DNA of 64,000 nt from Escherichia coli (lineage in GTDB: Bacteria; Pseudomonadota; Gammaproteobacteria; Enterobacterales; Enterobacteriaceae). The notes under the pieces are model-generated. The model worked only from the letters and a program-made list of their open reading frames with translations. It made no database searches and was not told the origin of the DNA. This document shows, in pieces, positions 26,304-27,816 of this stretch (position 1 is the stretch's first letter; each line of letters begins with the position of its first letter). A program made the translations under genes and the position numbers. The stretch is from the NCBI RefSeq assembly GCF_048403405.1, contig NZ_CP183129.1, one strand, 5' to 3'.

Positions 26304-26449
26304 TCCTCTGATTTACAAAACACGCTAATTCGTCTTCCATAAACCATGACGATTAAGATTTATACATAATGCGCTACATTGAGGAATTCCCTGAATGTGA
26401 CGCAAATCACTTCAAAGAGTGAGCAACAGTCAGTATCATCATGTGAGTT

Positions 26450-26484
26450 AAACCCTCGCCGCCTGACGGTGAGGGTTTTCTTTT
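26450..26484 (+). terminator. Rho-independent terminator after rna
   Basis: AAACCCTCGCCGCCTGACGGTGAGGGTTTTCTTTT. Confidence 0.8.
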
Positions 26485-26532
26485 GGGTATGTTTATCTGC
26501 GACACTCGCAGTACCGACGACATGGAGTAAAA

Positions 26533-26943
26533 ATGTCCAGACCAACTATCATCATTAACGACCTGGATGCCGAACGCATCGATATTCTGCTGGAGCAACC
26601 CGCCTATGCTGGTTTGCCAATCGCCGACGCGTTAAACGCAGAGTTGGATCGCGCCCAAATGTGTTCGCCAGAAGAGATGCCACACGACGTGGTGACAATG
26701 AACAGCCGGGTTAAATTCCGCAATCTTAGCGATGGCGAAGTGCGTGTGCGCACGCTGGTGTATCCGGCAAAAATGACCGACAGCAATACTCAGCTTTCCG
26801 TTATGGCTCCGGTAGGTGCTGCACTGCTGGGGCTGCGCGTTGGCGATTCCATTCACTGGGAACTTCCGGGCGGCGTTGCAACTCACCTTGAAGTGCTGGA
26901 ACTCGAATACCAGCCAGAAGCTGCTGGCGACTACCTGCTTTAA
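26533..26943 (+). CDS. rnk: Regulator of nucleoside diphosphate kinase (GreA/GreB-like)
   Basis: 136-aa ORF. Confidence 0.9.
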
Positions 26944-26976
26944 TCCCATCTGCACAAGCGATAACTCGCTTTGCCC

Positions 26977-27003
26977 AGAGGATGCACTCGCATCCTCTTT
27001 CCG
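26977..27003 (+). terminator. Probable terminator after rnk
   Basis: AGAGGATGCACTCGCATCCTCT hairpin followed by TTTCC. Confidence 0.6.
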
Positions 27004-27298
27004 CTCAAATATCAACCAGATTTATCATTTTGCTCTTAAGCGCAGCATTCTAATCTGAACTGGTTATTCATCTGCGGAACCTCATATGAGCGAAGCTCTC
27101 GGTATCACTGCATTTTATATATTCATAGCAGCAATTATTGTTGCTGCAGTGCTATACCTTGAACAACGCTGGTAGCGCCTGGTTTTATTTATTTTCCAGC
27201 TCAATAGCAAATTCAGATCAAATCAGCCTCGCAAATCATAGATTCATAACCAATAATGTGCTGTTATGTATACATGCAAAAACAAGGAGAGAATGCTT

Positions 27299-27727
27299 AT
27301 GTACAAAACAATCATCATGCCAGTGGATGTTTTCGAAATGGAATTGAGCGACAAAGCGGTTCGCCACGCTGAATTCCTCGCCCAGGATGACGGAGTTATT
27401 CATCTACTTCACGTACTACCGGGGTCAGCCAGCCTGAGCCTGCACCGTTTTGCCGCTGATGTGCGTCGTTTTGAAGAGCATCTGCAACATGAAGCAGAAG
27501 AACGTCTGCAAACGATGGTCAGCCACTTCACCATCGATCCTTCCCGCATTAAGCAACATGTCCGTTTTGGTAGCGTGCGGGATGAAGTCAATGAGTTGGC
27601 AGAAGAACTGGGGGCTGATGTTGTAGTTATCGGTTCTCGCAACCCATCGATTTCGACCCATCTGTTAGGTTCTAACGCCTCGAGCGTGATCCGCCACGCC
27701 AATCTGCCGGTGCTGGTTGTGCGTTAA
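27299..27727 (+). CDS. uspG: Universal stress protein G
   Basis: 142 aa from MYKTIIMPV...; AAGGAGAG RBS upstream; UspA fold. Confidence 0.9.
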
Positions 27728-27743
27728 TTGCCAGAATAAATAT

Positions 27744-27780
27744 CCCGCCCTGCCCGGAGCCATCCCGGCGGGGCTTTTTA
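27744..27780 (+). terminator. Probable terminator after uspG
   Basis: CCCGCC...GGCGGGG stem followed by CTTTTTA. Confidence 0.6.
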
Positions 27781-27786
27781 TTGCCA

Positions 27787-27816
27787 TAAAAAAGCCGCCA
27801 GGTTTGACCCCGGCGG
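27787..27816 (-). terminator. Rho-independent terminator after ahpF (minus strand)
   Basis: Reverse complement reads GCCGCCGGGGTCAAACCTGGCGGC then TTTTTT. Confidence 0.7.

Follow-up and report, generated by a model that had tools for sequence, protein, structure and literature searches.

The window analysed here is a stretch of 64,000 nucleotides of Escherichia coli DNA, in which the genes rnk and uspG are separated by a spacer of only 355 bp (26944..27298). This size, claimed in the original prediction, was found again when the coordinates were re-checked, and the RefSeq start of uspG agrees with it. Genes and signals all lie on one strand, in the order rnk, hairpin, yldA, 123 bp including the uspG promoter region, and uspG (Table 1). 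The rnk stop codon, TAA, occupies positions 26941-26943. The same region is found in strain TUM14771, which is 100% identical to the window from 26400 to 27800, and in which RefSeq places rnk (WP_000089731.1), yldA and uspG at the same positions. Identity to the K-12 genes is 99.3% for rnk and 97.4% overall for uspG. In K-12 the spacer measures 1689 bp and hosts ybdR, the gene of a zinc-dependent alcohol dehydrogenase, in line with the gene order given for this strain in the original prediction. The predicted absence of ybdR from the window is confirmed by tblastn. The K-12 YbdR query finds nothing significant in the spacer (best E = 0.99) and nothing at E <= 1e-3 over the whole 64 kb, and all the full-length orthologues from the fetched loci find nothing in the spacer at E <= 0.01. 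The arrangement with the short spacer and no ybdR is referred to below as the short form, and the arrangement of K-12 as the K-12 form.

Table 1. Features of the rnk-uspG region in the window
Feature	Position	Strand	Description
rnk	26533..26943	+	nucleoside diphosphate kinase regulator; 136-aa ORF; left flank of the spacer
rnk terminator hairpin	26977..26998	+	AGAGGATGC-ACTC-GCATCCTCT, then short TTT
block differing from K-12	27005..27310 (end approximate)	.	core at 27005-27280
putative yldA -10 element TAATCT	27051..27056	+	proposed from a recurring motif
weak Shine-Dalgarno core GGAA of yldA	27076..27079	+	six bases 5' of the ATG
yldA	27086..27175	+	29-aa single-pass small membrane protein; genus-wide Escherichia allele
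uspG-proximal conserved element	27225..27298	+	presumed uspG promoter and ribosome-binding site; promoter function putative
uspG	27299..27727	+	universal stress protein G; right flank of the spacer; RefSeq start in TUM14771

The hairpin located downstream from rnk has a 9-bp stem and a folding energy of -15.5 kcal/mol (z = -3.5 against shuffled sequences), and is kept across genera. The earlier assignment of the rnk terminator to the spacer stands as far as the hairpin is concerned. The hairpin is not called by a strict terminator scan, because the stem is followed by TTT only. A consensus promoter and terminator scan of the interval 26850-27400 similarly called nothing. The only match of the spacer in Rfam is to a eukaryotic snoRNA; with 27.3 bits it stays below the gathering score (45), and it was discarded as a chance match.

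The 29-codon ORF of the spacer encodes the peptide MSEALGITAFYIFIAAIIVAAVLYLEQRW. In every short-form genome inspected this product is named in RefSeq "small membrane protein YldA" (WP_001287361.1). The peptide matches the NCBIfam equivalog model NF041476 over its full length (1-29/29) with 59 bits, the cutoff being 45 (E = 3.2e-16); K-12 YldA scores slightly less on the same model (57.9 bits). The sole Pfam match is to PF23689 (YldA-like), at 22.9 bits (E = 9e-5), which is below the gathering score of 27. K-12 YldA reaches 73.6 bits on this model, which appears centred on the K-12-type allele. The ORF is hence the already annotated gene yldA, and has not been exposed by the absence of ybdR. 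K-12 carries yldA as well, between rnk and ybdR, and the stop codons of yldA and ybdR lie there three bases apart on opposite strands. The ORF had been rightly taken for a real small membrane-protein gene, but it had been missed that the gene is known, annotated and also found in K-12. The search of small-protein catalogues suggested at the time for the 29-aa peptide finds it in NF041476, and the product of the K-12 allele is known from tagging. K-12 YldA, and this allele only, was detected in rich medium by immunoblot of a chromosomal SPA-tagged version (VanOrsdel 2018, PMC6001520, Table 1).

In YldA a short acidic stretch at the N-terminus precedes a helix of some 22 residues, and the peptide closes with a polar tail of four residues, the first of which is an invariant Glu. 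The 22-residue core has a mean Kyte-Doolittle hydropathy of 2.50, as expected for the single-helix peptide with a weak Shine-Dalgarno that had been predicted. YldA is plausibly a single-pass inner-membrane protein with a cytoplasmic C-terminus. The K-12 protein (UniProt YLDA_ECOLI) is similarly encoded by 29 codons directly 3' of rnk on the same strand, and shares with the window protein a common architecture, consisting of M-x-E, one helix and an L-Y-L-E-x-x-x tail. What comes next along the chromosome differs, being the opposite-strand ybdR in K-12 and the uspG promoter in the window. The distance of the yldA ATG from the end of the rnk coding match is 134-153 nt in 15/16 genomes inspected; C. 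sedlakii, with 236 nt, is the exception.

An ATG-initiated ORF of at least 29 codons is found in 1419 of 2000 shuffled versions of the spacer (71%). ORFs of this length are thus expected by chance, so that the mere existence of the ORF is no evidence, and the case is carried by conservation. The gene measures 29 codons, with start and stop kept, in all the 37 loci that have it, which belong to Escherichia, Citrobacter, Enterobacter, Lelliottia, Leclercia, Pseudenterobacter, Phytobacter and Kosakonia. The window gene and its E. albertii homologue differ at six synonymous and no non-synonymous positions. Given about 20 synonymous and 64 non-synonymous sites, the probability that six neutral changes are all synonymous is roughly 2e-4. 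The original prediction would have been weakened by an ORF devoid of conservation, and this is not what these comparisons return. Against three other genera dN/dS is 0.09-0.13 (about 0.1-0.2 against other genera in general), and over 630 pairs the mean pS and pN are 0.62 and 0.24. Residues E3, A21, V22, L25 and E26 are invariant in 34/34 distinct peptides, and all five are found in the window peptide. Upstream signals recur too. A purine-rich Shine-Dalgarno core (GGAA, GGGA or AGGA) is located 6-9 nt 5' of the ATG in 16/16 genera or strains inspected, and a TAAyCyG motif is found about 30 nt 5' of the ATG in Escherichia, Citrobacter, Enterobacter and Leclercia, the promoter position being deduced from this conservation alone. 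Folding around the start codon is weaker than in shuffled controls (z = +1.46). Substitution pattern and length constancy clearly point to purifying selection on yldA.

One could still suppose that the ORF of the window allele arose by chance or is decaying, and that protein is made from the K-12 allele only. The chance expectation for length fits this supposition, as do the weak Shine-Dalgarno, the lack of a called consensus promoter, the sub-threshold Pfam score and the fact that the protein was detected for the K-12 allele. Neither a chance ORF nor a decaying copy is however expected to accumulate exclusively synonymous changes relative to E. albertii, to exhibit dN/dS values of 0.09-0.13 against other genera, or to keep length, start and stop in 37 loci. 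Moreover, the window peptide is nearer to the family consensus than K-12 YldA, and scores slightly higher on NF041476. A non-functional ORF is accordingly strongly disfavoured, and is the least credible of all the alternatives considered in this work.

The short form is a common natural dimorphism of E. coli. Of the 5426 complete genomes of this species that were searched, about 1818 (~34%) have it and 3600 (66%) have the K-12 form. When the K-12 cassette is used as query against short-form genomes, the first 61 bp only are matched; ybdR has therefore not been relocated elsewhere in these genomes. The short form is found in ST131, 536, ATCC 25922, NRG 857C and the type strain ATCC 11775, all of which we take to belong to phylogroup B2, as well as in IAI39 and 042, presumably F and D strains, respectively. 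Strains with the K-12 form include K-12 and O157:H7, which we assign to phylogroups A and E. The short form is hosted also by E. albertii, by Escherichia sp. MOD1-EC7003 and by the divergent "E. coli" SCPM-O-B-8794. Peptide records were collected by exact-sequence cluster look-up, and the fetched loci were scanned with a profile of our own. Records of the window-type YldA come from E. coli, E. marmotae, E. albertii and unclassified Escherichia; among the members sampled, those of the K-12 type come from E. coli and Shigella only. The literature searched contains no paper on the window-type peptide or on the ybdR polymorphism.

The family was surveyed through 80 species-level loci recovered with Rnk, and rnk-uspG spacers fall into four tight length classes. 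Spacers of 146-202 bp carry neither gene, and are found in Kosakonia, Kluyvera, the C. freundii complex and Trabulsiella. Those of 348-363 bp carry yldA only, and include the Escherichia short form, the Citrobacter R56 group, Lelliottia, E. soli and Phytobacter. Spacers of 1509-1559 bp, found in Salmonella arizonae and diarizonae, E. cloacae, Leclercia and Silvania, host ybdR only, and both genes are present in those of 1646-1786 bp found in K-12, C. sedlakii and many Enterobacter. Intermediate lengths occur in a few loci, for instance 385-396 bp in two spacers, and 478 and 510 bp in the pair of C. amalonaticus genomes. The classes listed as devoid of yldA truly lack the gene, as ascertained by a frame-independent profile search. 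Spacers of 348-363 bp with yldA alone recur in Escherichia, Citrobacter, Lelliottia, Enterobacter, Phytobacter and Kosakonia, and this arrangement is therefore a stable one.

The alignment of window and K-12, suggested earlier as a way to define the endpoints of the difference, is informative. Collinearity in blastn ends at 27004, just past the rnk hairpin, and returns at 27281. The intervening core measures 276 bp in the window and 1611 bp in K-12. Identity to K-12 is 97-99% in the flanks and drops to 58-63% within the variable segment, a figure which refers to the corresponding parts, namely the region upstream of yldA, yldA itself and the uspG-proximal region. The two YldA proteins are identical at 15/29 residues (52%), and synonymous sites of the two genes are saturated (pS = 0.80; the value for window versus Enterobacter is 0.73). 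About 75 bp adjoining uspG can be aligned in all four spacer classes, and come in two flavours. That of the window is shared with other Escherichia, Citrobacter R56 and C. portucalensis (C. freundii-type), that of K-12 with Salmonella, C. sedlakii and Enterobacter.

Differences extend into uspG. Seven of the 11 changes that separate the window and K-12 genes fall within nucleotides 1-60. At nucleotides 6 and 9 K-12 has the state of Salmonella, Citrobacter and Enterobacter, and the window that of Escherichia; nucleotides 61-429 of K-12 uspG are native Escherichia sequence. The right edge of the replaced block is located within the first ~60 nt of uspG, and its end coordinate is approximate. Within E. 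coli the 3' third of uspG forms a mosaic of its own; in the window, a short-form core goes together with a K-12-like allele of this part. Judged from these alignments, the difference between window and K-12 is a segment replacement, with no clean indel. The original prediction had left it open whether ybdR was deleted in this lineage or inserted in K-12. A gain in K-12 is favoured by the data reported below, but the framing as a clean indel does not hold, as yldA, the uspG promoter and the first uspG codons have been replaced as well.

Two candidate vestiges of a transition between the forms were evaluated and rejected. Strain HH97 seemed an intermediate, featuring a K-12-type yldA, window-like sequence and a decayed remnant of the 5' part of ybdR. 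It is one genome out of 5426. Most of the divergence of HH97 and of its sister assembly HH45 from K-12 consists of changes to G (in HH45, C>G 41, A>G 37, T>G 28). Such a spectrum is not natural, and therefore points to base-calling or assembly error, which is the likely origin of the apparent intermediate. The HH97 remnant had in turn suggested a ybdR trace at 27236-27262 of the window. This tract aligns with the uspG-proximal element in genomes both with and without ybdR.

The organization of the locus resembles that of the 'replacement islands' of the E. coli core genome, which likewise have sharp junctions at short conserved islands, a diverged interior and near-identical flanks, and in which one form similarly carries an extra gene. 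The rnk-uspG segment differs from these for its small size (0.3 kb versus 1.6 kb), and because mobility genes, repeats and tRNA are missing.

Within the variable segment, the window is 85-98% identical to E. albertii, MOD1-EC7003 or SCPM-O-B-8794, and flanking genes and spacers are 85-97% identical. The divergence of the short form hence tracks that of its flanks, which is the pattern expected of vertical descent since the ancestor of the genus. The short form is probably native to Escherichia, and the K-12 cassette probably a foreign replacement that took place in an ancestor of part of E. coli. The donor would be an unsampled enterobacterial lineage, about as distant as Salmonella or Citrobacter sedlakii. 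Crossovers would have occurred in the two short islands that are best conserved in the region, at the rnk terminator and the start of uspG, and recombination would have brought in, in a single cassette, a diverged yldA allele, the opposite-strand ybdR and a different uspG promoter. That the K-12 form had a single origin is suggested by a handful of reference strains. Non-coli Escherichia were represented by one genome per species, E. fergusonii not being among the loci recovered, and the K-12 form could occur in some unsampled member of this set. A search for the donor of the cassette returned none, the closest named YbdR outside E. coli being that of Salmonella (91-92%). Third-position identity of K-12 ybdR to Salmonella and C. 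sedlakii is ~50%, and that of flanking core genes is 50-61%. The direction of the replacement is given as probable, and not more firmly, because the relatedness of K-12 ybdR to that of each sampled genus does not exceed the relatedness of core genes, the donor search was empty and non-coli Escherichia were sampled as just described.

One alternative is a simple loss, in which a deletion of about 1.3 kb would have removed ybdR from a K-12-like ancestor and produced the short form within E. coli. The gene is old somewhere in the family, as it is found at this locus in Salmonella, C. sedlakii, many Enterobacter, Leclercia and Silvania, and a loss of this kind is seen in E. asburiae TN152, where the 396-bp spacer still encodes 17 C-terminal residues of YbdR at 94% identity. 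After a deletion, however, collinearity with K-12 should persist on either side. In fact the ~80 bp 5' of yldA, yldA itself with its saturated synonymous sites and the uspG promoter are nearly unalignable between flanks that are 97-99% identical. Because window and K-12 are not collinear, this explanation is largely refuted. Nor does it gain from the search for debris: tblastn detects no YbdR remnant in the window spacer, the candidate trace corresponds to the conserved uspG-proximal element, and the HH97 "intermediate" looks like an assembly artefact. The presence of the short form, with species-level divergence, in E. albertii and in the two divergent Escherichia genomes is also at odds with a loss within E. 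coli. A simple deletion is accordingly considered very improbable.

More serious, and indeed the main rival, is the view that both forms are ancient and that the K-12 form was inherited vertically, either because the Escherichia ancestor was polymorphic or because recombination later carried the short form from one Escherichia species to another and into E. coli phylogroups B2, D and F. In its favour, ybdR is as diverged from its Salmonella and C. sedlakii counterparts as core genes are, which fits vertical descent, and no donor was found. The locus is moreover prone to recombination, as indicated by the mosaic 3' third of uspG and by the mixed nature of the window itself, and the existence of all four gene combinations across the family suggests repeated exchange. 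On the other hand, an ancestral polymorphism must have outlasted several speciations, to vanish then from every non-coli Escherichia sampled, and K-12-type YldA is on record from E. coli and Shigella only among the members sampled. Spreading of the short form needs several transfers, each with a divergence matching that of the flanks. The cores of short-form B2, D and F strains differ by 0-1.4%, a range comparable to that of rnk (0-0.7%), and give no hint of having been imported separately. Ancient coexistence of the two forms is on balance unlikely, and replacement of a native short form by a foreign K-12 cassette is the reading retained below.

The two forms may differ also in the way the region is transcribed. 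No terminator-like site was found by scanning the interval between yldA and uspG, and the tract 27165-27215 folds no better than shuffled sequences. Since ybdR is missing and there is no detectable terminator in between, transcripts starting at rnk or yldA may run into uspG in the short form. In K-12, ybdR and yldA are listed as a convergent overlapping transcript pair (PMC12288877). There, the opposite-strand ybdR lies between yldA and uspG, and overlaps yldA transcription. The genes of the short form are thus plausibly co-transcribed.

Some hints on the function of YldA come from its similarity to YoaI. On the YoaI model NF041475 window YldA scores 30 bits (E = 4e-7, model positions 8-34), the cutoff being 45. 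In the opposite direction, YoaI scores 18.9 bits on the YldA-family profile, a value reached by 0/2000 shuffles, the best of which has 9.2 bits; of eight small hydrophobic proteins unrelated to YldA, none gets beyond 2.6 bits. The similarity is more than composition would give. On these profile scores, which compare two very short hydrophobic peptides, YldA is a relative of YoaI and, because 30 bits are below the cutoff, not a member of its family. YoaI (34 aa) is, as YldA, a single-pass protein with an acidic N-terminus and a four-residue tail opening with Glu-Arg. Over the 29 positions aligned, about 12 agree with the YldA consensus. YoaI has five additional residues at its N-terminus, and its gene lies at an unrelated locus (yeaK-yeaL). 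The invariant residues S26, V27 and E31 of YoaI align with the invariant A21, V22 and E26 of YldA, Val and Glu being kept and Ser replaced by Ala.

The conserved Glu deserves attention. The substitutions E31A and E31Q abolish both binding of YoaI to EnvZ and activation of EnvZ-OmpR, leaving membrane localisation unaffected (PMC11429745, section 12). YoaI is regulated by PhoB and by low Mg2+ (PMC11429745). Other small membrane proteins tune larger ones, as MgrB does with PhoQ, MgtS with MgtA and MzrA with EnvZ (PMC12648545). By analogy only, YldA could be one more very short helix tuning a larger protein of the membrane. Its helix and the tail residue Glu26 would make the contact with a larger inner-membrane protein, for example a sensor kinase. 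This YoaI-like mode of action is proposed tentatively, as one possibility that the resemblance raises and that we consider somewhat less probable than a different mode. In the papers searched neither a partner nor a phenotype is reported for YldA. A broader scheme can be drawn, in which YldA is a YoaI paralogue tuning a sensor kinase via the tail Glu, and the two allele classes, each with its own uspG promoter and with or without the ybdR barrier, would wire stress signalling differently in B2/D/F and A/B1/E strains, with joint expression of rnk, yldA and uspG in the short form and their mutual insulation in the K-12 form. The scheme as a whole is speculative, and we regard it as a little less probable even than the ancient coexistence of the two forms.

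Part of what has been described is already known. The gene yldA is annotated, its K-12 product has been detected, and the absence of ybdR is common, so that the finding is real but ordinary. The replacement structure of the difference, the probable foreign nature of the K-12 form together with its uspG promoter, the failure of the Pfam model to capture the genus-wide allele and the likeness of YldA to YoaI, all modest points, may have gone unrecorded so far; the literature searched holds nothing on the replacement structure, the origin of the K-12 form, the Pfam miss or the YldA-YoaI resemblance. The likeness to YoaI, extending to the Glu involved in EnvZ binding, provides a cheap and specific lead to the function of the small protein. 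Annotation based on Pfam will miss the YldA allele of a third of E. coli and of other Escherichia, because its score is under threshold. K-12 is unrepresentative at the rnk-uspG locus, where its yldA allele, its uspG promoter and ybdR have all probably come from outside the genus. If so, data on the regulation of uspG and yldA obtained in K-12 would therefore not be transferable to strains of phylogroups B2, D and F, which include many extraintestinal pathogens.

Within E. coli, the last third of uspG, at its 3' end, forms a mosaic of its own. Over the tract listed in the table, sequence comparison of the window revealed 6.2% differences from the B2 type strain ATCC 11775, 7.3% from IAI39 and 4.3% from 042, all clustered, and only 1.1% from K-12. 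Since the 3' end of the gene is close to K-12 and far from the other three, the window strain combines a short-form core (yldA, lacking ybdR) with a K-12-like uspG 3' allele.

Coordinates of the features discussed (L-numbers denote comparison loci from other genomes)
Feature	Sequence	Coordinates	Remark
uspG 3' tract	window	27574-27724	uspG nt ~276-426
yldA	window	27086-27175	
YldA codon 25	window	27158-27160	
yldA	ATCC 11775, L089	3687-3776	WP_001287360.1
yldA and ybdR	K-12, L001	4682-6013	opposite strands, overlapping
yoaI	K-12, L084	16893-16997	
rnk-uspG spacer	Enterobacter asburiae TN152, L057	830-1225	396 bp
rnk to yldA ATG	Citrobacter sedlakii, L024	4906-5141	236 nt
Divergent stretch	HH97, L003	4040-4492	
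Divergent stretch	HH45, L088	~1900-2900	
rnk (match H30)	NZ_LR890350.1	98573-99173	

Spacers vary also in other genera. That of E. asburiae TN152 holds yldA and 17 residues of the YbdR C-terminus (94% identity), and is a real, recent ybdR deletion in a genus other than Escherichia. Between rnk and the yldA ATG, the 15 other inspected genomes have 134-153 nt; the longer interval of C. sedlakii implies that about 90 bp were inserted upstream of its yldA.

HH97, a strain once considered intermediate between the short and K-12 forms, and its sister HH45 are two assemblies from a single study, and in both the identity to K-12 drops locally to 57-83%. Most of the substitutions produce a G (C>G, A>G, T>G), a pattern resembling errors of base calling or assembly, and HH97 features in addition an apparent chimeric join between K-12-type and short-type sequences. 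As a separate observation, one match of the E. coli genome search carries a rnk 81.7% identical to that of the window, on a 300-kb record of an assembly labelled E. coli (MSB1_9D). Possibly the record is a megaplasmid, or else a contig of another genus; the same search returned six plasmid-borne matches.

In K-12, yldA and ybdR both belong to a cluster of 100 genes that sodium fluoride induces in the absence of oxygen (PMC10100675). As yldA and ybdR overlap, on opposite strands, their induction may be one signal.

YldA and YoaI, an EnvZ-binding inner-membrane protein of 34 residues, look like distant paralogues: their similarity exceeds that expected from composition, and the three positions that are invariant in YoaI each line up with one that is invariant in YldA. 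No mention of this resemblance was found in the papers searched. At position 25, YldA has Leu in the window and in all 34 species-level sequences, and Phe in ATCC 11775. Against the Pfam YldA-like model PF23689, the K-12 allele scores 73.6 bits and the window allele 22.9 bits, below the gathering score of 27. Annotation based on Pfam would overlook the YldA allele of about one third of E. coli and of the other Escherichia species.
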